From an uncultured Gemmatimonadota bacterium (lineage in GTDB: Bacteria > JAAXHH01), in contig OX638340.1 of NCBI GenBank assembly GCA_951812955.1, positions 1,824,001 to 1,888,000 of the forward strand: DNA of 64,000 nucleotides. The letters run 5' to 3'. Shown piece after piece: positions 2,148-43,846 of the stretch. Both the position numbers and the translations under genes were made by a program. Below the pieces are notes generated by a model. That model searched no databases. It worked only from the letters and a program-made list of their open reading frames with translations, and was not told the DNA's origin. The number at the start of each line of letters is the position of its first letter. Positions within the stretch are counted from its first letter, which is position 1.

Positions 2148-2252
2148 GCGACTGGCGCATCGGTCGACGGCTGACAAATTGGTCGGCGACTGGCGCAATG
2201 GTCGGCGGCATGCGCAATGGTCGGCGGCATGCGCAATGGTCGGCGGCTGGCA
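2148..2252. repeat. Tandem array of GC-rich ~19-20 bp units (gcgcaatggtcggcggcat x3 plus two degenerate gactggcgca-ggtcg-cgg copies)
   Basis: Read directly. The repeats create duplicated ORF starts (MVGGMRNGRR twice) just upstream of the PhyH gene's RBS. Confidence 0.8.
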
Positions 2253-2294
2253 CTTTCGAAAATCCCAGTATCGATTCCAGGAAAGGAATCCCCC

Positions 2295-3185
2295 ATGGCG
2301 ATGGTCGACATGAAACAGATCCACGGTCTGGAAGATGTCACGGGGCTGCTGACGCGTCCCGACGAACTACGACAACGTGCCGTGGAGCAAGGTTGTCTGT
2401 TCTTTCGCGGACTTCTCGATCCGGGGAGCGTCCTTGAGGTCCGGCGGCAGGTGCTCGGCGTGTGCCGGGACCACGGGTGGCTCGCGGATGAATCGGACCT
2501 GATGGATGGCGTCGCGAATCCCGGAATCCGCGTAGGTGAAAGCGGCATCCCTAGCTGGCAGGCCTTTTACGATGACGTGCAGCGGATCCGCGATTTTCAC
2601 GCGCTCGCACTGGACCCGTCGATGATCGGGATGCTGGAAGCGCTGTTCGGAGAAACGGTACTGGCCCACAGCCGGAATATCTGCAGGCTGGTGTTCCCGG
2701 ATATGAACGCCCACTCGACACCGCCCCACCAGGACAACTACTTCATCGGCGGATCGGACGAGACGTGGACGGCCTGGATTCCCCTGGGCGACTGTCCCGA
2801 GGAACTCGGCGGACTCGCCGTCAACCGGGGATCCCATCGCAGGGGCATGCTGGAGACGACCGAAGGCGTCGGACCCGGCGGGCGGCAGGTGTACGTCGAA
2901 GACGATTCCACCTGGGTCGGCGGCGACTATGAATGTGGCGACGTGATCATTCTCCACAGCCTGACGATCCACCAGGGCCGGGACAACGTGACATCTGACC
3001 GCCTCAGGATTTCGACCGACTACCGTTACCAGCCAAGAAGCCACCCGGTCCGGGAGGATTCACTCCAACCACACATGAACTGGTTGACCTGGGACGAGAT
3101 ATACGAACAGTGGGATGAGGAAGATCCGGTGAAGTACTACTGGAAGGGCTGGGACTTGGACGTGGTCACGCGGGAGCCTCGATAG
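2295..3185 (+). CDS. Phytanoyl-CoA dioxygenase (PhyH) family Fe(II)/2-oxoglutarate-dependent oxygenase (paralog 1)
   Basis: HQDNYFIGG...TAWIPLGD and a downstream His (HS..IHQG) fit the PhyH-family HxD...H facial triad context. Start chosen at the first ATG after the repeat array, with GGAAAGGAA SD. Confidence 0.7.
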   Translation: MAMVDMKQIHGLEDVTGLLTRPDELRQRAVEQGCLFFRGLLDPGSVLEVRRQVLGVCRDHGWLADESDLMDGVANPGIRVGESGIPSWQAFYDDVQRIRDFHALALDPSMIGMLEALFGETVLAHSRNICRLVFPDMNAHSTPPHQDNYFIGGSDETWTAWIPLGDCPEELGGLAVNRGSHRRGMLETTEGVGPGGRQVYVEDDSTWVGGDYECGDVIILHSLTIHQGRDNVTSDRLRISTDYRYQPRSHPVREDSLQPHMNWLTWDEIYEQWDEEDPVKYYWKGWDLDVVTREPR

Positions 3186-3318
3186 GCGTCGCAGGGAGAG
3201 CAACCGGAGAAACGCCGCTGTGCGCATCGTGGGAGCCGCGCTGATCCGCTACTTGAACATGCCCAATTCCTTCTCCAAAACCGTCAAGCACCTGATTCGT
3301 CTCTTCCTCAGTAAACCG

Positions 3319-4350
3319 ATGGCGGCACCGGTTGATATGACGGGACGCCACGTAATCGTAACCGGCGCGTCCCCTGGTTCGCTCGGGTACGAAACCGCGC
3401 GGGTCCTTGCGGGTTGGGGCGCGACGGTCGCAGCAACCTGCGTGCGCAATGTCCCTCTCATGGAAGCGACATTAAAAGACGACTTGCTTAAGCTAGGCGC
3501 CAGTGAGGACAACATCACGGCCCACAGGTTGGACCTCAGCGATCCGGACAGCGTAAACGACTTCGCCGCATGGTACCGCGACAGACACCAGGGTAAGCTC
3601 CACGTACTGGTCAACAACGCGGGCATCCACCGGAAGACCTTCGCACCACGCAAGCAGCCGCCGCTGGCCGAAGATGGCTTCGAAATACACTGGCGGACCA
3701 ACTACCTCGGCGCTTTTCACCTGACCTGGGTCCTGCTGCCCTTCCTGCAACGGACAGGACTCGAAAGCGGCGACGCACGCGTTGTCAACGTGTCCTCCGG
3801 CCTGCACGAACGGGTCGGGAACGAGGACCTTTTCGATGAGGGGACGCGCCACGGAGTGCCGCACCGCGAGGAGCCACGACAAGGAAGACCGCGCGACGGG
3901 GAGCCGCTCCAAGGGGAGCCGCGCTCCGATATGCCGCGCTACCACTCCTGGGACGCCTACGGAAAGTCGAAACTGGCGATGATCCACATGGCATTTGAGA
4001 TCGAAAGACGATTCGCCGAATCCCACAATCTGCACGCGGTGGCTGTGCATCCGGGTGTCGTGATGACCAACCTGACCCTTCCACAGGCGTTTCGTGGACT
4101 GTTGGGCAAGGCATTGCATCGAGTCAGTACCGCGCTGACCTCACTGGTCCTGCTGTCTCCGAATGCCGGGGCGCAGACCATTGTGATGTGTGCGAGCCAG
4201 CGGCAACTGCAAGGTGGGAAATACTACGAGCGCTGCGCCGTCGGCGAGCCGTCCGCGGACAGCCAGGACGAGACCGTGGCAAAACGCCTTTGGGACCTGT
4301 CGGAACTGTGGGCCGGGACGCTCGCACAGTCAGGTGGAGATGCCCGTTGA
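3319..4350 (+). CDS. Short-chain dehydrogenase/reductase (SDR) with a charged low-complexity insert
   Basis: VIVTGASPGSLGYETARVLAGWGATV Rossmann motif, NNAG motif and a Y...K catalytic region. The EPRQGRPRDGEPLQGEPRSD insert is unusual. Start uncertain: an alternative GTG at 3220 is possible. Confidence 0.75.
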   Translation: MAAPVDMTGRHVIVTGASPGSLGYETARVLAGWGATVAATCVRNVPLMEATLKDDLLKLGASEDNITAHRLDLSDPDSVNDFAAWYRDRHQGKLHVLVNNAGIHRKTFAPRKQPPLAEDGFEIHWRTNYLGAFHLTWVLLPFLQRTGLESGDARVVNVSSGLHERVGNEDLFDEGTRHGVPHREEPRQGRPRDGEPLQGEPRSDMPRYHSWDAYGKSKLAMIHMAFEIERRFAESHNLHAVAVHPGVVMTNLTLPQAFRGLLGKALHRVSTALTSLVLLSPNAGAQTIVMCASQRQLQGGKYYERCAVGEPSADSQDETVAKRLWDLSELWAGTLAQSGGDAR

Positions 4351-4495
4351 CGATTCATGAAGTCCGTACCGGTCCCATCATGTTCAGCTTGACTGCCAGG
4401 ATTCACAAACTGCACGGCATTCGCGGCTCACACGACTCTCACGGCACCCACGGCACGCAGAGTAAAACCGGAATCAATCCACAAGGACATGCAAT

Positions 4496-5257
4496 TTGGA
4501 CAGCGAACTACTGAAACGGGGATTCGCACCTCGGCCGCTGACGGACGCGCAACGCAGCGCGCTGGACACCGATGGCTTCATCGTGCTGGAGGAGGTCATC
4601 TCGCCAGACTGGCTCTCCGAACTGCGCCATGCATTCGATGAGATATTTGACAGCGAGGGCGATAGAGCCGGTGAGGAGGTCTCCCAGATGGAAGGGGTGC
4701 GCCGGCTTGCCGATCTGGTCAACAAGGGATCGGTATTCGATGCGGTTTACCTGCAGCCCGAGCTTTTGACGGCCGTCTACCATGTCCTGCAGAGGCCGTT
4801 CAAACTGCACTCGCTCAACGGGCACGACCCGCTTCCCAGCAACGGGTTACAGGTGCTGCACGCCGATTGGGGCCAACCTGCCGAGCCCGGCGGGCCGTAT
4901 CATGTCGTTAACTCTTTGTGGATGCTCGACGATTTCACCCTCGCCAACGGTGCGTCACGCTGCGTGCCGGGCAGCCACCTGAAACCCGGCAGGATCGGCG
5001 ACCTCGTAACGGACCGCCTGGCGGACCACCCCGACCAGGTACACCTGACGGGCCGTGCGGGATCGGTTGCCGTATTCAACGGCAGCCTCTGGCACAGCTC
5101 GTATGTCAACCTCAGCGGTGCCCCTCGCCGGACCCTGCACTGCGCCTTCATAGCCCGCGAACACCCGCAACAGACTAATCAGCGGGAGTATCTGCGGCCC
5201 GAGACCGCCCAACGGCTATCCCCACTGGCGCGCTACATCCTCGACGTCCCTCCGTAA
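4496..5257 (+). CDS. PhyH family dioxygenase (paralog 2), TTG start
   Basis: 253 aa with LQVLHADWGQP (His-x-Asp) and GSLWHSS downstream His, typical of the PhyH fold. The ORF ends exactly at the islet boundary. Confidence 0.7.
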   Translation: MDSELLKRGFAPRPLTDAQRSALDTDGFIVLEEVISPDWLSELRHAFDEIFDSEGDRAGEEVSQMEGVRRLADLVNKGSVFDAVYLQPELLTAVYHVLQRPFKLHSLNGHDPLPSNGLQVLHADWGQPAEPGGPYHVVNSLWMLDDFTLANGASRCVPGSHLKPGRIGDLVTDRLADHPDQVHLTGRAGSVAVFNGSLWHSSYVNLSGAPRRTLHCAFIAREHPQQTNQREYLRPETAQRLSPLARYILDVPP

Positions 5258-5496
5258 CACGATTACACGGTAGTTTGTTAATTTTTGTAGGGGAATTAGT
5301 ATGTAAAAACAACAATACGGCAGGCAATAGAAGTTGGGTCTAGTTGTTCCCACCCGTATTGTCCCCAAGTGCTGTACTTTCAACGTACATTCAGTCAATT
5401 AAAAAAATCGTGACCCACCTCTTTAATTCTGATGTTCATTCTCCTTCGGGTGATGTTTGGTTTGATTTCAGTCGACATTGTATCCTTACGTGCATT

Positions 5497-7572
5497 CTAG
5501 TTCACTAACTCAAATACATGCTTAACACTACCGTCCGGTTTTAACACGAGCCCAAACCACTTTTCCAACTTATGTGGGTATACACTTTCTTTGGAATCCC
5601 GGTGAAATTTCTCCTCTAACACCTCCACGGTAGATCTACTACAGTAAATAAACAGTCCTATAGGTAAACCTGGGAACAAAGCACGAACTGTCTGGCTCTT
5701 CTTATTTAATAAATGCCGATTACAAATCCGATTGATATTTTTGTTTATAGTTTTACAAACATCGTCAGACAAGGTTATCAAGAAAAGCCCAAGGTCGATT
5801 TTCAATGGATCGGGGGAGGTTTCCAATTCCTTCAAGATGCTTCCCAAGGGCGTACCAACCAATCTTGTCAGTATGCCATCTGGAGTCGGTATTCCGTCTA
5901 TGCCGTCCCTCCTGACCGCCATTGCAGTATCGAGATGCACTGAGAAATCGTCATCAATTAACATCAAGTCAATATCGTCTCTAAGCCATAGGTTATGTCT
6001 TAGGTGATAGGACAGCAACATATGCTCATGACTCGCCATCAGACGCTCGCCAAATCGTGCCCGTAACTCAAGGTAACTTAAAAACCATAGAGGCGTAGAT
6101 AACATTTCTGATATCGCATCGAGTGAAAAAACGTCGGTGACAAGTGGAGGTAAAATCTGAGTAGTTGACTTGTATTCTAAAAACTGTCTCAACTGAAAAG
6201 CCAACGCCGGGTAATGGTCCGCGATGATTGCTACAGGAAAAATAACCTTCTGAGATTCTTCTATACGGATTACCTCGTTGTTCTTGGTATATAGACTTAC
6301 GGACTGATCTCCGAGGAGTTTAGCACACTCAAATGACTGCTCTACTGCATCTTGAATCGCCATCCTAAAGTCGGATCTTAACACTCGATCGTTCCCTCTT
6401 CGAGATTCCAGTGTTAGCCTTTTTGATTTCGATTGCACCAAAACAACCCGGTCGCCAAATATCACCAAGACATCAATCTCTCCAAGTGTGTGCCCTTTGG
6501 TCTTTCGTAACTCGACGTTTTTATACACTCGATCAGAACCAAAGACATGAACAAGTCTATCATATGTAAAGCTCTCCGTGAAATCCCCTCGATGTGTAAG
6601 TGCTGTTGGTGCATACAAACTATCAGTGCACATCCAATAGAACGGTGTTTCATAAAACGCTTCCGTTAATCCGTAATACTGCAAGAGTACGTATTTATCT
6701 ACATCTCTACGTATGAACGGGTAGATATAGGCTTTGTTAAAGTCATTGATAGTTGAGAAGCCAGCATTTCTTTCGCAAGAAGGTAAAGTAAATGCGTTTA
6801 CAAATGCTTGAACGTCTTCTGTAGGAAATCCTATATAGGAAGCAAGTTCAGTGCAGGAAAAGGTAAAGAAAGGTAAGACCGCCCGATCCTTAGCAGGCCC
6901 TTTTATTTGGTCGCTCAAGACTGTTTCTAAACTCCGGTTTAGGACGTAAGGAATCCCATCACACACCGCCTTTCCAACTACCAAATCAACTGATTTGTTC
7001 TGAGAAAGCCAGTCGGAATCGAGACTGTATTTTGTCAATGCTAGATCACGGTATTGAAAGGGATATGCAGACTCGCCTGCGTAGAAAATGGGTTCCCTAA
7101 GGGATTCCCCGGTAGAGAATGGATTTGCATTAGGGACAGACCCGCCGACTACTCTCCGCTGCATCAACTTCAACGTAGGTTGCACCATAGTTAAGTGCAA
7201 TTCATCCAACAGTTCCGCGGACTTCTTGATGTAATCATTAAGAACTGTAGGTGTTGGCATGGAAAAGTCGATAGGGCCTCGCATCATGAGACCGATTAGC
7301 GTGGTGATTTCGGTACGGATTAGCTGCGAATGGGATCGCCATTGAAGAAGTTCGTCGGAATTTAGTTCATCCTTGAAACCGACGACATTGTCCCGCAGTG
7401 AAATAAAAGCGATTGCGTGAATAAAACCTACGGAGAGGCACAATGCAGCCAGGTCATCAAACACAGACTGTTCTGAGCGCATATAAACGATCCTGGGCTG
7501 TAGCAGACAATTCCAAATTGCGTCTATTGGATTCGAAAGCCAAGAGTTGGATTCTGAATCCGAACCGTTCAT
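5497..7572 (-). CDS. Large hypothetical protein with an internal NERD / PD-(D/E)xK-like nuclease motif; candidate defence effector
   Basis: 691-aa ORF, low-GC codon usage. Central GHTLGEIDVLVIFGDRVVLVQSKSKR resembles the NERD/PD-(D/E)xK core (D...Q/E-x-K). No Walker A and no methyltransferase motifs. Possible Rx4H HEPN-like motif (RLMASH) in the C-terminal third. Confidence 0.6.
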   Translation of the reverse strand: MNGSDSESNSWLSNPIDAIWNCLLQPRIVYMRSEQSVFDDLAALCLSVGFIHAIAFISLRDNVVGFKDELNSDELLQWRSHSQLIRTEITTLIGLMMRGPIDFSMPTPTVLNDYIKKSAELLDELHLTMVQPTLKLMQRRVVGGSVPNANPFSTGESLREPIFYAGESAYPFQYRDLALTKYSLDSDWLSQNKSVDLVVGKAVCDGIPYVLNRSLETVLSDQIKGPAKDRAVLPFFTFSCTELASYIGFPTEDVQAFVNAFTLPSCERNAGFSTINDFNKAYIYPFIRRDVDKYVLLQYYGLTEAFYETPFYWMCTDSLYAPTALTHRGDFTESFTYDRLVHVFGSDRVYKNVELRKTKGHTLGEIDVLVIFGDRVVLVQSKSKRLTLESRRGNDRVLRSDFRMAIQDAVEQSFECAKLLGDQSVSLYTKNNEVIRIEESQKVIFPVAIIADHYPALAFQLRQFLEYKSTTQILPPLVTDVFSLDAISEMLSTPLWFLSYLELRARFGERLMASHEHMLLSYHLRHNLWLRDDIDLMLIDDDFSVHLDTAMAVRRDGIDGIPTPDGILTRLVGTPLGSILKELETSPDPLKIDLGLFLITLSDDVCKTINKNINRICNRHLLNKKSQTVRALFPGLPIGLFIYCSRSTVEVLEEKFHRDSKESVYPHKLEKWFGLVLKPDGSVKHVFELVN

Positions 7573-7708
7573 CCATGGCTTTTAACTTTAGATTCTCCAG
7601 ATAGCTGTTTCGGATAATTAAACAAGTCAGTTCGCCGGAAACATCTCGTGCAACCCGCGCTGATACACCGTTGGTGACTACAGCTTCACCGTCGGTGTGA
7701 ACGCACCT

Positions 7709-7960
7709 TTACCGGTTGTTGTGATTATCCACGGGTTTGTTTTCTTCTGAAGCGTGGTGGTCATCGCCTAACGGGATTAAATCCTTCGATATAGCCAGCG
7801 AACCGCCTATTAGAGCCATGAGTGGAGACTTTACGACTTCGTAAGCGTCCTCCGCTGTCATTCCTCCGCTCCAACACATCGCAACGAAGATGATTATAAG
7901 CGAAGAGTAACCTAAACCCACAAGGACCAGTACATTCTTCCGCCACGGAACCTTCATCAT
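7709..7960 (-). CDS. Small membrane protein (about 83 aa, one or two TM helices) upstream partner of the 691-aa gene
   Basis: Strong RBS AAGGAGGA immediately before an ATG ATG start. Hydrophobic stretch LVLVGLGYSSLIIIFVAMCW. Located 137 bp upstream of the large gene on the same strand. Confidence 0.55.
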   Translation of the reverse strand: MMKVPWRKNVLVLVGLGYSSLIIIFVAMCWSGGMTAEDAYEVVKSPLMALIGGSLAISKDLIPLGDDHHASEENKPVDNHNNR

Positions 7961-8029
7961 ATCCTCCTTTTGGGTATTCTCCCAATTCACATAATATGTT
8001 TGACAATCGCTTTATAATGCTCCGAGCAA

Positions 8030-9445
8030 CTAACCAAACAACTCCTGCACCATTCCCCGCGCCCGATCGATCACGGTTTCGAGACAGCCGGGTGCTAGCT
8101 TGGCCCAGTAGGTGACATCTTCGTTGGCCTCGTGTCCACCGCGGGCATATGCCTCCCTCGTCGGCAGGTAACCGACATAGTGCGTCGTGAGGTGTGCCGG
8201 AAACAGATAGGAAGCTGGCGAGTTTACTTTAAGCGACAGTTGTCCTTCCACAAAGGGCTCACCGGGGAGGCCTACAATACAAAGATTACCGATGCGCAAG
8301 GCCTGTATCTCATAGCTGAACTCGCCGTCCCTCTGCCTGCATAGTTCGACGCTGCGGGTCGATGCCGCCCGAAACCAGCGCGGCTCCACTTGACCGTTCT
8401 CTTCGCGCGGCGGTTCCGGATGCTCAGTGAGAATCGCATCGACTTCGCGCAGTCGTTCGTCCGATATCTCGCGAAAGGGCAGTCTGATCTTTTCTATCCT
8501 TGTATCTAGCGCAGCATCGCCGGCGAACGTCATGTTGCGCATGATACGTTCGCTCAGACCGGATAATCCTCGCCCCATACGCCGGTGGTCCGGCTTAAAA
8601 TCGGGGTCGAAGGGGTGCCAGGGGTTGATGTTGCCGCAACATCCGTTGACGACCAACGGCACGGAATCCGGATCGAAAATCTGCTGCATCTCCCGGGACC
8701 AGGCGCCGGGCCAATCCGCCGACGCGGCCATGAAGGTCTCCTCGTTTCCGTATGCATTGACCGGATGACACGTGTAGTGCAGGAGAAAGGCCAGCGGTTT
8801 CGAATTCATATCCTGGACGCAGCACACGCCTACCTCCGGGTCCATCGGCCCTTCCAGGTAGCACACATCCGAGATCCCGAAGGGCTGCCGCTCCCGACCA
8901 AGGGGTCTGGGCATAACTATGGTACCGTCCCTTCGAACGCCGCGGCGGTTAAAAGCCAGGTCGCCCAACACGCCGCGGCCCAGACCGATGCGTGCCGGTT
9001 GTAGCCTGCCGGCTGCCTCGACCGCGGCCTCAACGGCAGCGGCTGCGGCCCGGTCGCCATAGGCGCGTTCGGCCCCCCGCAGATACTCCGTTTCCTCGCT
9101 AGTCTCCATTGGAAAATCCGAATCCAGCATGAAGTAACCGAGGCTCGGGGCGGAATGCGTCTGCGTCGCCTGGACCATGATGGCGTCTCGTTCTATGCCC
9201 GTCTGCTCGCTGATGGCCGCACGGATCCGGTCTGTGTATTCACCGGTGACAATGGTGAGATCCAGGATCACGATGCAGACGCGCCGCCCATCCGCTTCGA
9301 AAACGATGGCCTTGGCAAAGAGCGGATCCAAAACGGCCTGGGTCGGACGGTGGTCACCGGCTCCGCTGCCCGCCAGATGCGTCCCCTCCGAAGGGGATAT
9401 GTCGATCATTGCCGCACCGGCGCTCAGCTGGTTCGACTCGTTCAT
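8030..9445 (-). CDS. Hypothetical hydrolase, neutral/alkaline ceramidase-like
   Basis: About 470 aa. N-terminal region (IDISP...AKAIVFEADGRRVCIVILDL...) resembles the neutral ceramidase N-terminal domain. Start set at the ATG preceded by GGAAAG; the ORF extends further to 9589. Confidence 0.45.
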   Translation of the reverse strand: MNESNQLSAGAAMIDISPSEGTHLAGSGAGDHRPTQAVLDPLFAKAIVFEADGRRVCIVILDLTIVTGEYTDRIRAAISEQTGIERDAIMVQATQTHSAPSLGYFMLDSDFPMETSEETEYLRGAERAYGDRAAAAAVEAAVEAAGRLQPARIGLGRGVLGDLAFNRRGVRRDGTIVMPRPLGRERQPFGISDVCYLEGPMDPEVGVCCVQDMNSKPLAFLLHYTCHPVNAYGNEETFMAASADWPGAWSREMQQIFDPDSVPLVVNGCCGNINPWHPFDPDFKPDHRRMGRGLSGLSERIMRNMTFAGDAALDTRIEKIRLPFREISDERLREVDAILTEHPEPPREENGQVEPRWFRAASTRSVELCRQRDGEFSYEIQALRIGNLCIVGLPGEPFVEGQLSLKVNSPASYLFPAHLTTHYVGYLPTREAYARGGHEANEDVTYWAKLAPGCLETVIDRARGMVQELFG

Positions 9446-9796
9446 GGCTTTCCTTTCGCAGTCTGAAGAGTAACCCGTGGGGCGTAACCCAGGGACCCGC
9501 GCGGGGATTATCCCGTGTGGGGAGGATCCCAGTCCATGTGGGGAGTAACTCGTAACGTACAGACTATGGCACCAGTACCGTTTCGTCAACGCCGTTCAGC
9601 CTTGACAGACGCGTGTATCTTACTTGTATCACAGTGTACGAAGATATGGGTTAAACGGCGCGGTCCAGTGGAGTACTCGAGCAACAGGCGAACGGAGCGC
9701 CGCGTATTAGCCGCCGGCCAGTTGATGAAGACCGACATGCATGATGAAGACTAACGCACAGAATGGTCACACCATCTGAGAAAGGACTGGTCAATC

Positions 9797-10936
9797 ATGA
9801 TTGAATTGCTCGGCATCGGCCACTTTTTTGAACTTACACGGTCGGAAGCTATTATGGGGTTTTTCACCCCGCTGATCGTCTATGCCGTGTTTTTCCTGGT
9901 GCAGCTCATCCTGCCCGGGCGGAGGGTTCCCGGTTACGTCATCAATCCGGAGACGGGTAAACCGCGCAATTACCGGCTCAACGGCATGCTCGTGTTCCTG
10001 ATCATGCTGATCGTCTGGGCGTTCGAACTCACCGGGATGCCCCACGACTGGTTCTTCCGGTCCTCGATCTACGCTGTGGCCGGCGGAACGGTTTTCGCCA
10101 TTATCTTTACCATAATCGCGACATTTACCCAGCCTGAAGGCAAGGTGAAGAGCCGGTTCCTGGCATGTTGGTTCGGCCGGGCCCAGGAGATTTCGTTCTT
10201 CAACGAGCGTATCGACGTTAAGATGTACATGTACGTTGTCGGCGGGTCGATGCTGTCGCTAAACGCCCTATCCGGGGCCGTGTACCACTACCAGGTATTT
10301 GGAGAGAACGCCAACCCAGGCGTTTTCATCTATGCGGGTTTCTTCACGTTCTACATCCTCGATTACTTCGTCTTTGAGCGCGTGCAACTCTACACCTACG
10401 ACCTGATCCACGAGAATGTGGGCTTCAAGCTGATCTGGGGCTGTCTCGTGGTCTACGGATGGCTATTCATCCTCCCGCTTTGGGGCATGGCCGCCTACCC
10501 GAACCCAGGCTTCTCACCGGCATGGACGAACTTCTGGCTGATTGGCACCTCAGCACTGTTCCTGTTGGGATGGAGCATTTCCCGCGGCGCCAACCTGCAG
10601 AAGTATACGTTTAAAAGGTGGCCCGAACGAAAGTTCCTGGGGCTCATCGAACCGAAATACATTCAGGCTGGCGACCGCAAGATACTCTACAGCGGCCTGT
10701 GGGGCGTCGCCCGCCATCTCAACTACATGGGCGAGGGCTTCCTTTCCCTGTCCATCGCCCTGATATTCGGCTATTTCACCAATTTCTGGGCCTGGACCTA
10801 CCTCCTCTTCATCGTCTCGATGTTCTCCTACCGTCAACTCGATGACGACAGGCACTGCGCCGAGAAATACGGTACCAAAAAGTGGGCGGAATACCAGGAG
10901 AAGGTGAAGTACCGGATCGTGCCGGGGATTTATTGA
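9797..10936 (+). CDS. Sterol reductase family (ERG4/ERG24/7-DHCR-like, DUF1295-related) polytopic membrane protein
   Basis: C-terminal GLWGVARHLNYMGE and RQLDDDRHCAEKYGTKKWAEYQEKVKYRIVPGIY match the sterol-reductase family signatures. Multiple TM segments. Confidence 0.7.
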   Translation: MIELLGIGHFFELTRSEAIMGFFTPLIVYAVFFLVQLILPGRRVPGYVINPETGKPRNYRLNGMLVFLIMLIVWAFELTGMPHDWFFRSSIYAVAGGTVFAIIFTIIATFTQPEGKVKSRFLACWFGRAQEISFFNERIDVKMYMYVVGGSMLSLNALSGAVYHYQVFGENANPGVFIYAGFFTFYILDYFVFERVQLYTYDLIHENVGFKLIWGCLVVYGWLFILPLWGMAAYPNPGFSPAWTNFWLIGTSALFLLGWSISRGANLQKYTFKRWPERKFLGLIEPKYIQAGDRKILYSGLWGVARHLNYMGEGFLSLSIALIFGYFTNFWAWTYLLFIVSMFSYRQLDDDRHCAEKYGTKKWAEYQEKVKYRIVPGIY

Positions 10937-28386: not shown

Positions 28387-30783
28387 ATGTTCCAGAATTA
28401 CTTCGTCGTGGCCATACGCAATCTCCTCCGGCATCCCGCCTACTCGTTAATCAACATCGCCGGCCTCGCCATCGGTTTGACCGCGTGCATCCTGATCCTG
28501 TTGTACGTCCAGGACGAGCTCAGCTACGATCGTCATCACGAGAAAGCCAATCGCATTTACCGGATCGTCGATGATATTGAAAGCGGTGGGCAGACCATAG
28601 AGACTGCGGGTACGCCCCCTGGATGGGCTGCCGCGCTGAAGCGGGACTACCCGGAAGTCGAGCAGTTCGTCCGCATGAGGGGCACGATGTCCGCATGGCT
28701 GATTACCCATGGTGAATCCCGGTTTTACGAAAAGAAAGTCATCTGGGCGGAGCCAACCCTGTTCGAGTTGTTTTCTATCCCTCTGGTTTCCGGCAATCCC
28801 CGGACCGCACTGAGAGATCCAAAATCGATGGTGGTTTCGGAGGAAATGGCGTTCAAGTACTTCGGCGAGGAAGAAGCATTGGGAAAGATCATCAACGTGG
28901 ATCAAAGCTGGGACTTCGTCGTGACCGGCGTCATGCGGAACATGCCCGCCAATTCCCACATGCGTGCGGACATGTTCGCTTCCTTCAGAGAATTCAGAGC
29001 CATGGGTCTGGATCAGGACTGGGAAAACCATGACAACAACTACACCTATCTTCTGTTGCGTGAAGGCGCCTCTCCCGAAGCACTCGAAGCGCGGTTGCCG
29101 TCCTTCCTGGAACGCTACGCTGGGGACATGTACAGCGAAGCGGGCGTCACCTTGAACCCGTCGCTGCAATCTCTGGTAGATATCCATCTGCATTCGCACC
29201 GGGAGAGCGAACTCGAGCCCAATGGAGATATCCGTTACGTGGCGCTCTTCATGATCATCTCGTTCCTGATTCCGCTGATCGCGTGCATCAACTTCGTCAA
29301 CATGGCTACGGCACGGGCGGCCATGCGCGCAAGGGAAGTAGGCGTACGCAAGGTGATGGGCGCAGATCGACCCCAGTTGATCAGGCAATTCCTGGGAGAA
29401 GCAGTCTTGATCGCGGCATTCGCCATGATCCTTGCGGTGGTCCTGGTACATCTCGCCCTGCCTTCTGTCAATGCGCTCGCGGGCAAGCAACTGGCGTTCC
29501 CCCTGTCGAATGGCTTTGTATTGGCCGTATTGGCCGGTGGCACATTGGCCACAGGATTAGCCGCTGGCTGCTATCCGGCATTCTATCTGTCGCGTTTCCT
29601 GCCTACCGAAGTTTTGAAGGGCAACCCAATATCGGGAACACAAGGATTGGGGTTGCGCAAAGTGCTGGTCGTTACTCAGTTCGCCATGTCCATATTCCTG
29701 CTCGTCAGCACGGCCATCATCTTCGACCAACTCGAGTACATCCAGACCAAACGCCTCGGATTCGATAAGGAACAGGTAATGGTCGTGCCCATAACGGGAT
29801 TCCTGCAGCGGCAGAATACGCCCGTACTGAAAGATCGATTGTCCCAGTTACCGGGCGTTATGAGCATGGCGACGTCAACCGCCGTACCGGGCATGCGGGT
29901 GTTACCGATTATGCCGGTCCGTCCGGAGGGGATGCGGCCCGAGGATCACCTGATGATGGCCACACTGCAGGTGGACGATCATTTCCTGGACGTCATGGAG
30001 ATCGGACTGGTGACCGGGCGGAACTTTTCAACAGACTGGGGAACGGATTCGACCACGGGGTTCCTGCTGAACGAGACTGCAGTGCGGTACCTGGGGTGGG
30101 GAGCGCCTGCCGACGCGATTGGCAAGCGATTCGAGTGGATCCCATTCGGCGGGAAGAAAGGGGACGTAATCGGTGTGGTAGAGGATTTTCACCTGCGAAC
30201 GATTCACGAGGAGATCGAACCGGTCGTTATACTAACGAGTTCGTACCAGGAATATGTCCTTATCCGTATCGCACCGGACGGGATCCCCGAGACCGTCTCG
30301 CGCATTGAGAAAGTATGGCGGGACGTCGATCCCAGGTACCCGCTTGAATACACGTTCCTGGAAGAGGATTTTGACCGGCTGTACCGTGCCGACCGCCAGC
30401 TTGGCGAGGTCTTCGCGTCCTTTGCGTTTCTCGCGGTCTTCGTGGCCTGCCTGGGCCTCCTGGGGCTGTCTTCGTTCTCGATACAGCAGCGTACGAAAGA
30501 GATCGGCATTCGCAAGGTACTCGGCTCTACGGTTTCAGGAATCGTGGTATTGCTGTCCAGGGATTTCATGAAGTACGTCCTGCTGGCCAATGTCATCGCC
30601 TGGCCGCTGGCGTACTACGCCATGACGATTTGGCTACAAAATTACGCCTATTCATCGGAGATCAGGTTGGCGTGGTTTGTCTCGGGCGGCGTCACCGCGC
30701 TGGTCATCGCCTGGCTGACGATCGGCGCCCACGCGATGGCCGCTTCGCGGCGAAATCCGGTTAACGCCTTGAGGCAGGGGTGA
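28387..30783 (+). CDS. ABC transporter permease, FtsX/MacB-like, ~800 aa with two FtsX domains (paralog 1)
   Basis: MFQNYFVVAIRNLLRHPAYSLINIAGLAIGLTACILILLYVQDELSYDRHH N-terminus and the C-terminal ...RRNPVNALRQG are characteristic of the 800-aa FtsX-family permeases. Confidence 0.9.
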   Translation: MFQNYFVVAIRNLLRHPAYSLINIAGLAIGLTACILILLYVQDELSYDRHHEKANRIYRIVDDIESGGQTIETAGTPPGWAAALKRDYPEVEQFVRMRGTMSAWLITHGESRFYEKKVIWAEPTLFELFSIPLVSGNPRTALRDPKSMVVSEEMAFKYFGEEEALGKIINVDQSWDFVVTGVMRNMPANSHMRADMFASFREFRAMGLDQDWENHDNNYTYLLLREGASPEALEARLPSFLERYAGDMYSEAGVTLNPSLQSLVDIHLHSHRESELEPNGDIRYVALFMIISFLIPLIACINFVNMATARAAMRAREVGVRKVMGADRPQLIRQFLGEAVLIAAFAMILAVVLVHLALPSVNALAGKQLAFPLSNGFVLAVLAGGTLATGLAAGCYPAFYLSRFLPTEVLKGNPISGTQGLGLRKVLVVTQFAMSIFLLVSTAIIFDQLEYIQTKRLGFDKEQVMVVPITGFLQRQNTPVLKDRLSQLPGVMSMATSTAVPGMRVLPIMPVRPEGMRPEDHLMMATLQVDDHFLDVMEIGLVTGRNFSTDWGTDSTTGFLLNETAVRYLGWGAPADAIGKRFEWIPFGGKKGDVIGVVEDFHLRTIHEEIEPVVILTSSYQEYVLIRIAPDGIPETVSRIEKVWRDVDPRYPLEYTFLEEDFDRLYRADRQLGEVFASFAFLAVFVACLGLLGLSSFSIQQRTKEIGIRKVLGSTVSGIVVLLSRDFMKYVLLANVIAWPLAYYAMTIWLQNYAYSSEIRLAWFVSGGVTALVIAWLTIGAHAMAASRRNPVNALRQG

Positions 30784-31736: not shown

Positions 31737-34142
31737 GTGTTCCAGAACTACCTCAGTGTAGCCTTACGCAACCTCCGCAGGCATCCCGCCTACTCGCTCA
31801 TCAACATCGCAGGGCTTGCAATCGGCATGGCCACCTGCGTCCTGATCCTCCTGTATATCCAGGATGAGCTCAGCTACGACCGATATCATCCTCATGCCGA
31901 CCGCGTATACCGGATCGTCGACGACATCGAAAGCGGGGGACAGACCGTCCAGACCGCCGGGACTCCCACTGCCTGGGGACCTGCCCTGAAGCGCGACTTC
32001 CCCGAGATCGAGCTCGTTGTCCGGTTGAGAGGTACAGAATCCGCGTGGCTGGTCGATCTCGGCAACACAATCTACTATGAACGCAAAGTCATCTGGGCGG
32101 GATCGGACCTGTTCAGGATGTTCAGTTTTCCACTGGTCGCGGGCGACCCGGGCACCGCGCTGGCAGAACCGTATTCGATGGTGATCACCGAGGAATTGGC
32201 AGACAAGTATTTCGGCGCCGAAGAAGCCATTGGCAAAGCAGTCAATCTCGACAATCGCTGGGACTTCACGGTGACGGGCGTCATGAAGAACATTCCTACC
32301 AATTCTCACATGCGTCCAGACATGTTCGTATCCTATAGCACAATGATTGCGATACAGGCCTCCTGGGACCTGGAAGACTGGGAGTACCACCGAAACCTGT
32401 ACACCTACATCCGGCTCCGCGAGCATGTGTCACCGGATGATCTGGAAGCGAAATTGCCGGCATTTCTGGAACGTCACGCGGGTGACCAGTACCGGGAGGC
32501 GGGCATCAGCCTGCGGCCGTCGCTCCAGCCCCTGGTGGACATCCACCTCTATTCTAACCGGGAGAGTGAGCACGAACCCAACGGCGATATCCGGTACGTG
32601 GCCCTCTTCATGGCCATCGCGTTCCTGATCCTTATTATCGCATGCATCAATTTCATCAACCTGGCCACGGCCCGTTCCGAGATGCGCGCCAGGGAAGTCG
32701 GTGTGAGAAAGGTACTGGGCGCGAATCGGATCCAGTTGATCCGCCAGTTCCTGGGAGAATCGGTCCTCATGGCAGGTCTCGCCGCGATCGTTGCGGTAAT
32801 ACTGGTCCATCTCGCCTTGCCTGCCGTGAACGATATCGCGGGGAAACAACTCGCGCTGCCGCTTGCTGACTGGACCGTGCTGGCCGCGCTGGCCCTCGGT
32901 ACGACCTTGATCGGATTAACCGCCGGCAGTTATCCCGCGGCATACCTGTCGGGATTTCTTCCCGCCGTAGTAATGAAAGGCAACCCGGAGACGGGAAAGA
33001 AAGGCCTGGGGATGCGGCAGGCACTGGTGGTGATACAGTTCTCCATGTCCATCTTCCTGCTGGTCAGTACGGCCATCATCCATGATCAGCTCGATTACAT
33101 CCAGACCAAGCGGCTGGGTTTCAACAAAGAGCACGTTATGGTCGTCCCCATAACAGGTTCCCCGCAACTGCCAAATACGCCTGTCCTGAAGCAGCGCCTG
33201 TCGGAATTGCCCGGTGTCGTGGGTATCGCAACGACCACCGGCGTGCCAGGCATGCGGGTTATGCCTATCCTGGAGGTACGTCCCGAAGGAATGCGGCCTG
33301 AGGATCACCTGATGATGGCCACGCTGCACGTGGACGAGCACTTCCTGGACGTCATGAACATCGATCTCGTCGCTGGCCGGAACTTTTCATCGGACTGGGG
33401 TACGGATACGACCAGGGGGATCCTGATGAACGAGACGGCCGTCCGGTACCTGGACTGGGGAGCGCCCGACGACGCCATCGGCAGGCAAATCGAGCGGCTC
33501 AACTACAACAGGACGAAAGGCCGTGTGATCGGCGTGGTTCGGGATTTCCACCTGCGGACCATACACGAAGAGATCGAACCCGCATTGATCATGACCAGCA
33601 CCTATCACATTTTCGTCCTGATTCGAATCCAGCCCGAGGGAATCTCTGACACCATTGCACACATCGAGGAAATATGGAGGGATGTGGATCCCAGGTTTCC
33701 GCTGGATTATACCTTCCTGGACGAGGATTTCGACGCGCTGTACCGGACCGACCAGCAGCTTGGCGAGATCTTCGCGGTCTTCGCGTTTCTCGCGATCTTC
33801 GTGGCCTGCCTTGGACTCCTGGGTCTGGCTTCCTTTTCCATCCAGCAACGCACCCGCGAGATCGGAATCCGCAAAGTAGTCGGTTCATCGGTTTCCAGTA
33901 TCGTGTTGCTCCTGTCGAAGGATTTTATGAAGTACGTGCTCCTGGCGAACCTGATCGCCTGGCCGCTGACCTACTTCGTCATGAACAACTGGCTGCAGAA
34001 CTACGCCTACGCCGCGGAACTTCGATTCGAGTGGTTTATGGCCGGCGGTGTTTTTGCCCTGGTCATTGCCTGGTTGACGATCGGTGCGCATGCCCTCGCT
34101 GCGTCGCGTAGGAATCCGGTGAACGCGTTGCGGCAGGGGTGA
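31737..34142 (+). CDS. ABC transporter permease, FtsX/MacB-like (paralog 2), GTG start
   Basis: Same architecture and N-/C-terminal signatures as 28387-30783. Confidence 0.9.
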   Translation: MFQNYLSVALRNLRRHPAYSLINIAGLAIGMATCVLILLYIQDELSYDRYHPHADRVYRIVDDIESGGQTVQTAGTPTAWGPALKRDFPEIELVVRLRGTESAWLVDLGNTIYYERKVIWAGSDLFRMFSFPLVAGDPGTALAEPYSMVITEELADKYFGAEEAIGKAVNLDNRWDFTVTGVMKNIPTNSHMRPDMFVSYSTMIAIQASWDLEDWEYHRNLYTYIRLREHVSPDDLEAKLPAFLERHAGDQYREAGISLRPSLQPLVDIHLYSNRESEHEPNGDIRYVALFMAIAFLILIIACINFINLATARSEMRAREVGVRKVLGANRIQLIRQFLGESVLMAGLAAIVAVILVHLALPAVNDIAGKQLALPLADWTVLAALALGTTLIGLTAGSYPAAYLSGFLPAVVMKGNPETGKKGLGMRQALVVIQFSMSIFLLVSTAIIHDQLDYIQTKRLGFNKEHVMVVPITGSPQLPNTPVLKQRLSELPGVVGIATTTGVPGMRVMPILEVRPEGMRPEDHLMMATLHVDEHFLDVMNIDLVAGRNFSSDWGTDTTRGILMNETAVRYLDWGAPDDAIGRQIERLNYNRTKGRVIGVVRDFHLRTIHEEIEPALIMTSTYHIFVLIRIQPEGISDTIAHIEEIWRDVDPRFPLDYTFLDEDFDALYRTDQQLGEIFAVFAFLAIFVACLGLLGLASFSIQQRTREIGIRKVVGSSVSSIVLLLSKDFMKYVLLANLIAWPLTYFVMNNWLQNYAYAAELRFEWFMAGGVFALVIAWLTIGAHALAASRRNPVNALRQG

Positions 34143-34184
34143 TTTCGAGGTTGGAGGATTAAACGGCTGGAGATCGATTGGGAA

Positions 34185-34535
34185 ATGTCCGATTACCAGA
34201 ACGCGAAACTGATCGTCTTATCCATCCTGGAGATTTCAAAGGACGCGATCCACATTCATATAGGATTGATCGTGTTTTTTGCAGCGGTGGTCCTATGGAA
34301 AAAAGGCTCGGTTGAAGGTCGTTGTCTGATCCCGGTCGTAATTGTTGCATCCTTGATGGAAATGCTCGATCTACGAGATCTCTATATCCAATCTGGCTCT
34401 TTACACATCGCTGCCCTTACAGCAAGTGTACACGATTTACTCAATACATTATTCTGGCCGGTGGTCATCGTAGCACTTGCCTGGATGAGTAATCTGAATG
34501 ATCACCGTACAGGCAGGAAACGCTTTGGAGCATAG
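34185..34535 (+). CDS. Small hypothetical membrane protein (116 aa) in a lower-GC spacer between two FtsX genes
   Basis: Three hydrophobic segments. ATG with GGAG upstream. Region is about 48% GC. Confidence 0.4.
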   Translation: MSDYQNAKLIVLSILEISKDAIHIHIGLIVFFAAVVLWKKGSVEGRCLIPVVIVASLMEMLDLRDLYIQSGSLHIAALTASVHDLLNTLFWPVVIVALAWMSNLNDHRTGRKRFGA

Positions 34536-34700
34536 TTGTGGATTGGGTACGTGATTTCTATTCCAGGCAACACATCGCGCTTGCTCATGCGTAGTTCGTC
34601 TCAAAAAGGGCACGCAATCCAGTCATTGAGCATGTAGTGCATCCGCTCAGTATCCAAAGTAAGTCCTTCCCACCACGATTACCCCCAATCAAAGGCGCAA

Positions 34701-37106
34701 ATGGTTTTCCATTACCTCAGAATCGCCCTACGTAACATGATCCGGCAGCCTGGCTACGCCGGCATCAACATCCTCGGACTGGCGATCGGCATCACCTGCT
34801 GTATGCTGATTTTGCTGTATATCCGGAACGAACTGAGCTACGACCGTTTCCATGATCATGCCGATCGGATCTACCGTGTAGTAAACGGCAATTCCGCCCG
34901 CACGCCACCCGCAGTGGGACCGGCGTTCAAAGAACTGTTCCTGGAGGTAGAGGAATATGCCCGGATGCGGGGCACAGCCAATATCTGGATGATGGCCTAT
35001 GGGGACAATGCCTTCTTTGAAAGCGATGTCTTCAGGGCAAGCAGAGGCGTTTTCAAGGTCTTTTCTTTTCCGCTTGTACGGGGAAATCCACAAACCGCAC
35101 TGGACGACTATGCGCATCCGGAACAAACTGTCGTCATCAGCGAAACTATGGCGACTAAACTCTTCGGTGACGAAAATCCCATGGGCAAGCTGATCCGCGC
35201 GGACGATGAGGAAGACCTTCGTGTGACCGGTGTGATGAAAGCTGTGCCGTCCAATTCCCACTTCGCCGTCGAATATCTGGTTTGTGAGCGTCTCGATGTT
35301 GGAAATCTCAGCGAGCGTTACGCAACGAACTGGTTTGCTGCGGTGCATTTCACCTACGTTCTGCTGTCAGAGGGAACAGACCCCAGTGAATTGGAGAATA
35401 AAATCGCCAGATGGGCAGATACCTTTGAACCGCTGATGCGGCTCAAGGCGCGAGGCCTGCCCTTCACTCCCCGGCTACAGCCAATGACCGACATCCATCT
35501 GCGGTCGCACCTGGAAGAGGATATGGCAAGCAACAGCGATATCAGCTACATCTACATCTTTTCGGTCGTAGCGTTTTTTGTCGTTCTGATCGCCTGTATC
35601 AACTTCATGAATCTGGCCACGGCGCGGGCTACCATCCGGGCTAGAGAAGTGGCCATTCGGAAAACAACAGGCGCTTCGCGGACCGAGTTGATCATACAAT
35701 ACATGGGCGAGTCCATGATGTCGGCCGGGTTGGCCTTTGTAGTTGCCATGGCCCTCTTTATCGCCATCCTGCCCTGGTTCAATACGCTGGTGGGAAAGGC
35801 GTTTCAGATCAGTTACCTTGACAGTCCGGAGATGTTGCTCTGGATGATGGGCATAACGTTGTTTGTGGGACTGTTGTCCGGCAGTTATCCTGCGCTGTTT
35901 ATATCCAGGATTCATCCGGCAGGGATTTTCAGGGGTGAATTGACAAGCGGAACCACGGGTTCCACACTGCGCAAGAGCCTTGTGGTGGCGCAGTTCACGC
36001 TATCGATTCTGCTGATTATCAGTACGGCTATTGTGTATCAACAGCTGGATCACATGCAAAGTAAACAACTGGGATTCGATAAGGACCAGGTCGTGGTAAT
36101 CCCACTTATCGGAGGTGTGGAGCGGGATTTCAATGCCTTCAAGGCCCGGCTTTCCCAGAGTCCACATATTCAGCGTGTTACTCGATCTGTATTGATGCCG
36201 GGACGTATGGCCAGTTCCGTTCAAATGCCCGCCTTTGCAACACGTCTGGCAGATCAGCCTGAAGAGAAAATGGTCAGGATTCCCGCCCTGTTTGTTTCTG
36301 CCGATTTCGAAGAAACCCTTGGTCTCAGATTGCTTTCCGGACGTCCATTTTCCAGCGAACTGAACGATGATTCGAACAACGCGGTGATCCTTAACCGGGC
36401 CGCGGTTGAACGATTGGGGCTGACCACACCGGAGGAAGTCGCAGGACTTCATATACGTTACATAGGGAGCTCTCCAATCAGGATCATAGGCGTCGTAGAG
36501 GATTTCCATATGCAGAGCGTTCATAGTGCGGCAGGGCCGGTACAGCTGAGGTTCATGAACCGCGGTGGCGGCGGCCAGGCGGCGATACGATTACAGGCGC
36601 AGAATATACCGGATGGGATTGATGCGATTGAAGACACATGGGCTTCGATATTCCCCGACTACCCGTTAGCGTATTCGTTTCTGGATGAAGATTTCGAGCG
36701 ATTGTACGTGTCGGAACGACAGACCGGCAATCTGCTCGGGGCATTCAGCTTTCTAGCCATCTTCATTGCGTGTCTGGGCCTGTTCGGCCTTGCTGCGTTC
36801 ACCACCCGTCAGCAAACCAAAGAGGTCGGTATTCACAAAGTAATGGGGGCTTCGGTGACTCGTATCGTCTTTATGCTTTCAAAGGATTTTCTCAAGCTGG
36901 TAGCGATTGCCGTACCGGTCGCCTGGGTCCTGGCTTACTGGGCCATGAGCAACTGGCTGCAGAACTTCGCGTATCGGGTCGATATCGGCCCCGCGTGGTT
37001 CCTGATCGCCGCTTTCCTGGCACTGGCCATCGCACTGGCTACAGTCAGTTTCAAGGCGGTAACGACTGCGTTGACGAACCCGGTGGAGAGCCTGCGGTCA
37101 GAATAG
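34701..37106 (+). CDS. ABC transporter permease, FtsX/MacB-like (paralog 3, the most divergent)
   Basis: MVFHYLRIALRNMIRQPGYAGINILGLAIGITCCMLILLYIRNELSYDRFH; 801 aa. Confidence 0.9.
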   Translation: MVFHYLRIALRNMIRQPGYAGINILGLAIGITCCMLILLYIRNELSYDRFHDHADRIYRVVNGNSARTPPAVGPAFKELFLEVEEYARMRGTANIWMMAYGDNAFFESDVFRASRGVFKVFSFPLVRGNPQTALDDYAHPEQTVVISETMATKLFGDENPMGKLIRADDEEDLRVTGVMKAVPSNSHFAVEYLVCERLDVGNLSERYATNWFAAVHFTYVLLSEGTDPSELENKIARWADTFEPLMRLKARGLPFTPRLQPMTDIHLRSHLEEDMASNSDISYIYIFSVVAFFVVLIACINFMNLATARATIRAREVAIRKTTGASRTELIIQYMGESMMSAGLAFVVAMALFIAILPWFNTLVGKAFQISYLDSPEMLLWMMGITLFVGLLSGSYPALFISRIHPAGIFRGELTSGTTGSTLRKSLVVAQFTLSILLIISTAIVYQQLDHMQSKQLGFDKDQVVVIPLIGGVERDFNAFKARLSQSPHIQRVTRSVLMPGRMASSVQMPAFATRLADQPEEKMVRIPALFVSADFEETLGLRLLSGRPFSSELNDDSNNAVILNRAAVERLGLTTPEEVAGLHIRYIGSSPIRIIGVVEDFHMQSVHSAAGPVQLRFMNRGGGGQAAIRLQAQNIPDGIDAIEDTWASIFPDYPLAYSFLDEDFERLYVSERQTGNLLGAFSFLAIFIACLGLFGLAAFTTRQQTKEVGIHKVMGASVTRIVFMLSKDFLKLVAIAVPVAWVLAYWAMSNWLQNFAYRVDIGPAWFLIAAFLALAIALATVSFKAVTTALTNPVESLRSE

Positions 37107-37136
37107 GGAAGGTAGTCTGACAAGGCGGCCTGATAG

Positions 37137-38003: not shown

Positions 38004-38078
38004 GTATCGCGCATCTGCGTTGTTCGCGTAACAACCCGGATAACAAATCGTTACTACCTATGGAAAAGACGATTTGAC

Positions 38079-39086: not shown

Positions 39087-39148
39087 TACGATTGGAAGAT
39101 CGATACGATGCAGGCAGGATTCACGCCGTGCGATAGAGAAACAACATT

Positions 39149-40054: not shown

Positions 40055-40078
40055 CTTCGACTTGCTCCTTGTTTGGCA

Positions 40079-41215: not shown

Positions 41216-41322
41216 TTGCGGGATACTAGTTCGAGACATTGAAGCCTCCGTTTTTGAGCGTAGTGAATTATGCCGTGCTGTAAAGTGGTCTCCAAATACT
41301 GCCTAAATTCAAAGTTGAAACA

Positions 41323-42087: not shown

Positions 42088-42216
42088 GGATATGGTCGTT
42101 GAAACAAGCGGCACATGCATTCCGCTTAACAGAAGGGTTTGCGTGGCGGAGATTCACTCTGGGCTCGCAATGCACGAGTTTCCGTAAGAATAAGATCAGT
42201 CCGAGAGGCCCAATGT

Positions 42217-42744: not shown

Positions 42745-42917
42745 ATGGGCACTGCGGAGACGGAGACAAGCCCTTCCGGAAAACCATCTGGTCAAAGGCT
42801 CGGATGAGATTCAGATTGTTAACGTCGTTTCACTTGCATCAACGCAGAGCAGCATCGAAGGCGTAAAACGGATGTCGCAGGCATCTTTAAACAAAAACAT
42901 TCCGCAGGTATCTGAAA

Positions 42918-43367: not shown

Positions 43368-43411
43368 TACGCTCACAAAACTAGAATGGCGTGAAACAAA
43401 CAGGTGCGCTA

Positions 43412-43765: not shown

Positions 43766-43846
43766 AAAGTGCCTTCTTGGGATGGTAGGTAGTAAAGATT
43801 GAGATTAGGGTTGTGCCAGTCTGGTCTGGCACCAAGGACGGGCATC

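Follow-up and report, generated by a model that had tools for sequence, protein, structure and literature searches.

Several anti-phage systems that consist of a single nuclease protein have been described. Upx is a single-protein PD-(D/E)xK anti-phage system (PDB 9wuf; PMC13099982, PMC13601566). It comprises about 1,270 amino acids (aa) in three domains, two of them nuclease-like, with the canonical core residues D1161, E1176 and K1178 at the extreme C-terminus (PMC13099982), and is switched on by the large terminase of the phage (PMC13601566). GAPS1 likewise consists of one PD-(D/E)xK protein, GapS1, triggered by a phage capsid protein (bioRxiv 10.1101/2023.03.28.534373), and ZwsA (Zowangsin) is a stand-alone NERD-domain RNA endonuclease directed against RNA phages (bioRxiv 10.64898/2026.04.06.716636). 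Here we analyse a gene of this general kind within a 64,000-nucleotide (nt) stretch, hereafter the window, of contig OX638340.1 from an uncultured Gemmatimonadota bacterium (assembly GCA_951812955.1, positions 1,824,001 to 1,888,000, forward strand). The window contains an islet of low guanine-plus-cytosine (GC) content with two genes, the larger of which encodes a predicted NERD-type PD-(D/E)xK nuclease. We consider it probable that this protein is a self-contained, single-gene candidate nuclease acting against phages or mobile elements, and that the small membrane-protein gene beside it is separate and not its partner.

The large gene and its predicted parts are arranged as follows.

5497–7482, minus strand: predicted 661-aa stand-alone NERD-type PD-(D/E)xK nuclease gene, stop codon at 5497–5499 (Pfam NERD; AlphaFold2)
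6688–7482, minus strand: N-terminal region, aa 1–265, predicted all-helical domain and then a winged-helix module (about aa 200–265)
6133–6678, minus strand: predicted nuclease core, aa 269–450, with an alpha-beta-beta-beta-alpha-beta restriction-endonuclease fold
6427–6576, minus strand: putative catalytic signature in 'GEIDVLVIFGDRVVLVQSKSK', invariant in 75 and 66 homologs
6574–6576, 6472–6474, 6433–6435 and 6427–6429, minus strand: putative catalytic codons for E303, D337, Q350 and K352, respectively
5500–6132, minus strand: conserved C-terminal region, aa 451–661, a helical part and a small alpha/beta domain, lacking a SEC-C tail

The open reading frame (ORF) extends to 7572 and would encode the 691 aa given in the initial annotation. 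However, nearly all listed homolog alignments begin at about query residue 31, and we therefore take the ATG at 7482, the conserved Met31, as the true start. The protein thereby shortens to 661 aa, and a database copy (P0001) has 661 aa at 100% identity. Residues are numbered from this methionine.

The proposal that the protein contains a nuclease-like core was borne out by two approaches. First, Pfam NERD (PF08378) matched aa 329–421 of the 691-aa ORF with 25.0 bits against a gathering threshold of 22.1 (E 2.8e-5). This was the only Pfam match in the large protein at E ≤ 1, and it covers about 95 of the 661 residues. Second, an AlphaFold2 model built on the family alignment (pLDDT 93.3, pTM 0.93) displayed a restriction-endonuclease-like fold that carries the E...D...(E/Q)xK residues and is preceded by a winged helix. 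Two alignments, of 75 and of 66 diverse members, show E303, D337, Q350 and K352 to be invariant, within a motif 'GEIDVLVxFGDRxxVxQxKSK', and the window copy keeps all four. Further near-invariant residues are concentrated at aa 424–540. Family models from Pfam and NCBIfam matched neither the conserved N-terminal nor the conserved C-terminal domains. No Walker A motif was detected, in agreement with what had been noted for the large protein at first reading. Taken together, domain match and model support the assignment as a PD-(D/E)xK (NERD) nuclease with putative activity. When the model was compared with the PDB using Foldseek, Upx ranked first (E 4.5e-5) and Can2 next; the likeness to Upx is structural only, at a TM-score of 0.36. 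A sequence search of the PDB returned only SEC-C tails and a marginal Can2 match.

At the C-terminus, about 45 of 66 relatives carry a SEC-C zinc tail (PF02810, CxC...CC), a motif that is absent from the window protein. Is the window copy then a decaying remnant that has lost its tail and function and lies in an inert islet? The tail is present in about two thirds of the relatives, and no recognisable promoter accompanies the gene, both of which fit such decay. On the other hand, nothing interrupts the frame across the 661 aa, none of the invariant family residues is missing and the model is confident throughout. The entire tail-less subclade of 658–683 aa, which includes the nearest relatives at 53–57% identity, lacks the tail as well. 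Decay is thus an improbable explanation in our judgement, and we continue with the gene as a candidate for an active nuclease.

The large protein had initially been described as part of an orphan module. This description does not hold, given more than 1,500 representative relatives of the large protein and 131 of the small one. A word-indexed search yielded 1,473 relatives of the large protein, the best 120 of which (P0001 aside) cover 84–97% of the query at 47–57% identity. When 1.84 billion representatives of clusters at 50% identity were scanned exhaustively with HMMER, 1,546 of them matched at E ≤ 1e-3; of these, 949 reached E ≤ 1e-10 and 559 reached E ≤ 1e-30, the last all full-length. 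Using one peptide pattern, we detected the family in 319 of 185,579 species-representative genomes. Its carriers are spread over Acidobacteriota, Alpha-, Beta- and Gammaproteobacteria, Nitrospirota, Planctomycetota, Bacteroidota, Cyanobacteria, Firmicutes and Desulfobacterota. In addition, 34 plasmid records carry the family, among them Agrobacterium pAt and two Halobaculum plasmids, and 22 of the 34 are predicted to be conjugative. The family was also detected on 19 IMG/VR contigs. The GC content of the family gene lies below that of the host flanks in 66 of 71 loci, with a median difference of -6.5 points.

NCBI lists members as 'SEC-C metal-binding domain-containing protein', 'nuclease-related domain-containing protein' or 'prepilin peptidase'. 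The last name, found on plasmid records and on P0060 and P0062, has no domain support here and is probably a propagated misannotation. Two variants stood out. One relative, P0076, measures 914 aa and combines an additional HNH_5 nuclease domain with a SEC-C tail. A Nitrospira copy (L012, 10001–11986) is broken into ORFs of 271 and 380 aa and is probably a pseudogene.

The islet itself lies between two convergent flanking genes.

5271–8017, no strand: insertion of about 2.75 kb with 43.5% GC between convergent stop codons (synteny breaks; GC z -4.35)
4496–5257, plus strand: PhyH-family dioxygenase, flanking core gene outside the islet (Pfam PhyH E=7e-22; 84–89% nucleotide identity in the sister genomes)
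8030–9445, minus strand: ceramidase-like protein, flanking core gene outside the islet (relatives of 471 aa; weak Pfam Ceramidase_alk match)

In 400-nt sliding windows, GC falls from 0.60–0.65 to 0.385–0.477 at about 5200–8000 and rises again beyond. Positions 5271–8017 have 43.5% GC versus 57.2% in the remaining window, which corresponds to z = -4.35 against every other interval of the same length in the window (mean 0.569, standard deviation 0.031, minimum 0.492). GC at third codon positions (GC3) is 0.44 in the large gene and 0.54 in the small gene, versus 0.76 in the PhyH gene and 0.70 in the ceramidase-like gene. In three sister Gemmatimonadota loci (L115, L116 and L117) the convergent ceramidase-like and PhyH genes are separated by 13–100 nt only. 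Synteny of the window with these loci (85–89% nucleotide identity) ends at 5256/5270 and 8018/8035, so that the insertion edges lie 13–18 nt from the two stop codons. The homologs of the ceramidase-like flank share 86–89% aa identity over 471 aa, and several are named by their source as Gemmatimonadota metagenome-assembled genomes (MAGs). Since the site is unoccupied in three sister genomes and both GC and GC3 deviate, the islet is a horizontally acquired insertion of about 2.75 kb in a Gemmatimonadota chromosome. That is, the AT-rich islet between convergent stop codons and its foreign origin, both proposed at first reading, were confirmed.

Confirmed as well was the content of the islet, that is, two co-oriented genes unaccompanied by integrase, tRNA or transposase. 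Two ORFs are present, both on the minus strand; Pfam revealed no integrase or transposase domain in either protein, and the tRNA scan found no tRNA across the whole window. No flanking direct or inverted repeats stood out at the islet, and the junction alignment with the sister loci displayed neither a target-site duplication nor terminal inverted repeats. The non-coding DNA of the islet has no similarity to any fetched locus, as all matches are confined to the two coding sequences. A scan for promoters and terminators gave fewer matches than shuffled sequence. Source names of relatives point to sponge-associated metagenomes.

These data bear on the idea that the large protein is a housekeeping nuclease of DNA repair or recombination whose base composition is incidental. 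The gene is absent from the same site in three sister genomes and occurs sporadically among the species representatives. Its low GC relative to the host recurs across the family, its context is never conserved, and plasmids and prophages carry it. We therefore regard a housekeeping role as scarcely credible.

The surroundings of the islet deserve mention in their own right. In L115 the empty site (10429–10502) holds short tandem repeats with CGCGTTACCG-like units, which L116, L117 and the window do not have. The islet splits a neighbourhood that resembles a lipid-modification locus (window 2217–10936; L115 1–19416). In the window this neighbourhood comprises two PhyH dioxygenases, a short-chain dehydrogenase, the ceramidase-like protein and a sterol-reductase-like membrane protein of the ERG4/ERG24 family, a homolog that is unusual in bacteria. 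In L115 a P450, a glycosyltransferase, a radical SAM protein and a large polyketide synthase (PKS) are added.

The initial annotation had likened the islet to defence cargo. We clustered all neighbours against all others at 83 distinct loci. The nuclease gene turned out to be solitary, with no recurrent neighbour within 10 kb; the commonest cluster, of unknown type, was found at 8 of the 83 loci. Individual loci nevertheless resemble defence islands or mobile regions. One of them contains CBASS (SMODS, HORMA, AAA), BrxR and a Lit-like peptidase, and another a methylase, an AAA and an S8 protease, a UvrD helicase, DUF4145 and AAA_13. A third combines DUF499 with resolvases, a group II intron and insertion sequence (IS) elements, and a further context contains AAA_21, HigB and integrases. 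On pAt, the gene is accompanied by PLD-like and AAA proteins and an integrase. Among the 132 nearest neighbours, 112 PADLOC models were matched at E ≤ 1e-10, including Hhe, AbiEi, SoFic, MkoA/C, BrxL and PDC-S05/S24/S37, versus 2 models among the 82 genes of the window and sister loci used as a control; this contrast is large but crude, as it counts models and one protein may match many of them. The defence-like setting was thus upheld in part: homologs do lie beside defence, prophage, plasmid and IS genes, but some neighbours are housekeeping genes and the counts are crude.

Within 10 kb on viral contigs we found large terminases, portal and head proteins, integrases and Zot-like proteins. 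Because of these phage structural genes and integrases, some family copies appear to ride on prophages. This raises the alternative that the nuclease works for the benefit of its carrier elements and not of the host, be it as a toxin for addiction or stabilisation, as a weapon between elements or in the processing of plasmid or prophage DNA. The predicted conjugative plasmids (22 of 34 records), the prophage-like contigs and the integrases, resolvases and IS elements alongside speak for such a role, as does the history of the domain: Grynberg and Godzik reportedly first described NERD, in 2004, as a domain for DNA processing encoded by a virulence plasmid. However, no antitoxin-like or immunity gene is conserved beside the nuclease at the 83 loci, nor is any recombination or replication partner, and the window islet is minimal and devoid of mobility genes. 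The line between the two roles is also blurred, since defence genes borne by prophages or plasmids would look no different. We consider service to the carrier element unlikely, though with a real share of the probability, and retain the single-gene anti-phage or anti-mobile-element nuclease as the preferred reading.

Two further features of the islet, and the spacer between its genes, concern the small protein.

7709–7957, minus strand: 82-aa single-pass membrane protein of an unnamed family, predicted to be independent of the nuclease (131 homologs; hydropathy)
7963–7969, minus strand: Shine-Dalgarno-like AAGGAGG, 5 nt upstream of the ATG at 7957 (direct reading of the sequence)
7483–7708, no strand: 226-nt intergenic spacer (promoter and terminator matches not above chance; no similarity elsewhere)

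The ATG at 7957 is the most likely start of the small gene, giving 82 aa as in P0271 rather than the 93 aa of an ORF that begins with GTG. The early description as a small transmembrane protein proved apt, since one strong hydrophobic segment spans about residues 9–31 (Kyte-Doolittle mean 2.5). A second, near-invariant motif reads AYEVVKxPLMALIGGSLAISKDLIP, and ten residues are invariant in the homolog alignment. The 131 homologs share 45–77% identity and come from MAGs named Acidobacteria, Deltaproteobacteria, Rhodobacter and others. Searches of Pfam, PADLOC, NCBIfam and PHROG did not match the small protein to any family, and a metagenome scan for its gene returned only four short loci.

Could the small membrane protein and the nuclease nonetheless belong to a single two-gene defence system in which a sensor or effector in the membrane acts together with the nuclease, as first proposed? 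The genes are adjacent and co-oriented inside one insertion, and relatives of the small protein likewise lie in variable regions near restriction, toxin-antitoxin and IS genes. Their settings include HNH, a methylase fragment and SNF2; IS1595, a pP_pnuc_1 nuclease, a Type ISP enzyme and AAA_21; a Type ISP enzyme with a PIN toxin-antitoxin pair; and IS21 or IS3 elements or genes of unknown function. The pair itself is not conserved, however. Six-frame phmmer searches (E ≤ 10) of 86 nuclease-family loci, 83 of them distinct, recovered no homolog of the small protein, and the nuclease family occurs in 0 of the 11 distinct small-gene loci. All that these 11 loci and the window have in common is the small gene alone, and the nuclease has no conserved neighbour of any kind. 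Given that the pair is unconserved, that 226 nt separate the genes and that DNA similarity is confined to each coding sequence, the small protein does not look like a partner of the nuclease; their adjacency in the window looks like a chance juxtaposition of two mobile accessory genes. A two-gene system is accordingly very unlikely in our estimation, and the nuclease is taken below as a single-gene candidate. For the small protein, a mobile membrane toxin or exclusion gene could be considered. At four loci (L106, 5606–5935; L119; L120; L122) an HNH-endonuclease-like ORF or remnant is located about 400–470 nt upstream of the small gene, which hints at a homing-type cassette in a subset of cases.

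How might a lone nuclease of this type work? In the mechanism we propose, it would act on invading nucleic acid, either DNA or RNA of phages or other mobile elements. Going by the fold, the helical and winged-helix part would hold or recognise the nucleic acid, and the NERD core would cut it, with a metal bound by E303 and D337 and with K352 completing the active site. More speculatively, the C-terminal domain, together with the zinc tail where present, might restrain or gate this activity and thereby spare host nucleic acid. Discrimination between self and non-self could be achieved in two ways. The protein might recognise a foreign feature directly, as in Type IV systems or ZwsA, or it might be auto-inhibited until a phage protein binds, as in Upx (terminase) or GAPS1 (capsid). 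Because of the winged helix in the model, we lean slightly towards direct recognition of nucleic acid. The partial structural likeness to Upx keeps a trigger by a phage protein in play.

Several observations weigh against an anti-phage or anti-mobile-element nuclease. The glutamate of the ExK motif is a glutamine in every family member, which is compatible with activity in some PD-(D/E)xK enzymes. If the SEC-C tail is essential, the window copy may behave differently from tailed relatives, although the subclade of about 660 aa lacks the tail likewise. Cultured phage genomes contained no match to the family. The association with defence relies on a few annotated contexts and a crude count of PADLOC models. 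Some neighbours are housekeeping genes (TonB receptor, AcrB, TamB, RNase PH), and near the islet the window contains no further defence genes; family loci flanked by housekeeping genes, like the window, are probably small solitary insertions. Finally, a literature search on NERD, SEC-C and defence found no paper on the family of the large protein.

Beyond the window, the data suggest a broader proposal, to which we give somewhat less than an even chance. The family, with its helical and winged-helix part, NERD core, C-terminal domain and optional SEC-C tail, may represent a widespread, unnamed single-gene system against phages or mobile elements. It would have its own sensing architecture, be present in hundreds of species from at least ten phyla, on conjugative plasmids and in prophages, and be a distant structural relative of Upx at half its size. 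As a separate part of this proposal, the 82-aa protein may stand for a new class of small genes that move between defence and variable regions in genomes of sponge symbionts from different phyla.

Should the family prove protective against phages or plasmids, the catalogue of widespread single-protein nuclease systems would grow by one that PADLOC v2 and NCBIfam 2026 miss. Its compact layout (winged helix, NERD core, regulatory domain, optional zinc tail) would then be a convenient model for how a lone nuclease discriminates between self and non-self, and for the role of the SEC-C tails that recur on defence proteins. Candidate single-gene nuclease families are common in defence islands, and nothing about this one is mechanistically surprising. 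Still, a family that is large, cleanly defined and overlooked by the detectors is a reasonable target for phage challenge. For the window, the outcome mainly corrects the first reading: the islet stands up, but there is no orphan two-gene system.

Elsewhere in the window, four ORFs of 798–801 aa were found (28387–30783, 31737–34142, 34701–37106 and 52017–54422). The one at 34701–37103 encodes a duplicated MacB_PCD/FtsX permease, and the three others are likely paralogs of it. A second, milder GC trough extends over 34000–44000 (0.47–0.53), with the lowest values outside the islet at about 38951–41700. Ten genes checked in this trough encode the MacB/FtsX permease, a metallo-beta-lactamase-fold protein, APH, a GldB-like protein, a beta-lactamase, SDR, PRTase, NUDIX, a tRNA-binding protein and an ankyrin-repeat protein (43799–44647). 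Ankyrin-repeat proteins are often reported in sponge symbionts.

Returning to the nuclease, we compared its family with named defence systems. No defence model of PADLOC or NCBIfam covers it, consistent with the early statement that the protein fits no named defence family. Across PADLOC, NCBIfam and PHROGs, the window proteins and 66 relatives produced only sub-threshold matches to the core or matches to the SEC-C tail. Matches to the PADLOC models E1-E2, E2 and PDC-S12, which involve 43–45 of the 66 members, we ascribe to the zinc tail and not to family membership, because a similar number (43–46) match the SEC-C models of NCBIfam and the tail-less window protein matches none. These three models seem to embed SEC-C tails; they give E-values of about 1e-8 on unrelated tailed proteins, which may be a source of false positives when defence genes are annotated. 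Rugutis, a lactococcal defence protein with a SEC-C motif, was considered and rejected as a relative, since it has 359 aa, an N-terminal motif and no nuclease.

With Upx, the window protein shares the single-protein PD-(D/E)xK plan, but its 661 aa contain only one core, which is centrally placed (D337/Q350/K352), and Upx is about twice as long. The Upx models of PADLOC matched neither the window protein at E ≤ 1 nor the 66 members at E ≤ 0.01, and the Shedu models likewise gave nothing beyond sub-threshold core or SEC-C matches. ZwsA resembles it in that both are stand-alone NERD effectors; ZwsA is associated with defence islands, as relatives of the window protein appear to be. The putative catalytic residues are also similarly spaced, with intervals of 32/13/2 in ZwsA (E535/D567/E580/K582) and 34/13/2 in the E-D-QxK series of the window protein. 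The VHS-DUF647-NERD-S4 architecture described for ZwsA, the basis of this comparison, is not matched, as NERD is the sole Pfam domain in the window protein at E ≤ 1. For GAPS1, the GapS1 model NF047931 was the only named anti-phage model in NCBIfam with any signal. It aligned with about 65 residues of the catalytic core of the window protein at 11.9 bits (cut-off 320, E 0.071), and 3 of the 66 members reached E of about 1e-3. The nuclease of GAPS1 is C-terminal, whereas the core of the window protein is central.

Generic Pfam NERD proteins are closer in name: the window protein passes the NERD threshold and its family shares their NCBI names, with the N- and C-terminal domains coming in addition. 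The protein differs from Type IV or Mrr-like enzymes, from the nuclease domains of the CRISPR and CBASS effectors Can2, Card1 and NucC, and from SduA of Shedu and HamA of Hachiman. It lacks a CARF or SAVED sensor as well as a helicase partner. No methyltransferase or signalling gene is conserved beside the family at the 83 loci, and Pfam detected no DUF4263, Mrr_cat or Mrr_N in the window protein. Type IV, Mrr-like enzymes join a winged-helix DNA reader to a PD-(D/E)xK nuclease and depend on modification of the DNA; in the model of the window protein a winged helix precedes the core, without a Pfam match to Mrr. By analogy with these systems, we regard the nuclease family as a distinct architecture within a known kind, predicted to work like Upx, GAPS1 and ZwsA and a member of none of the named systems.

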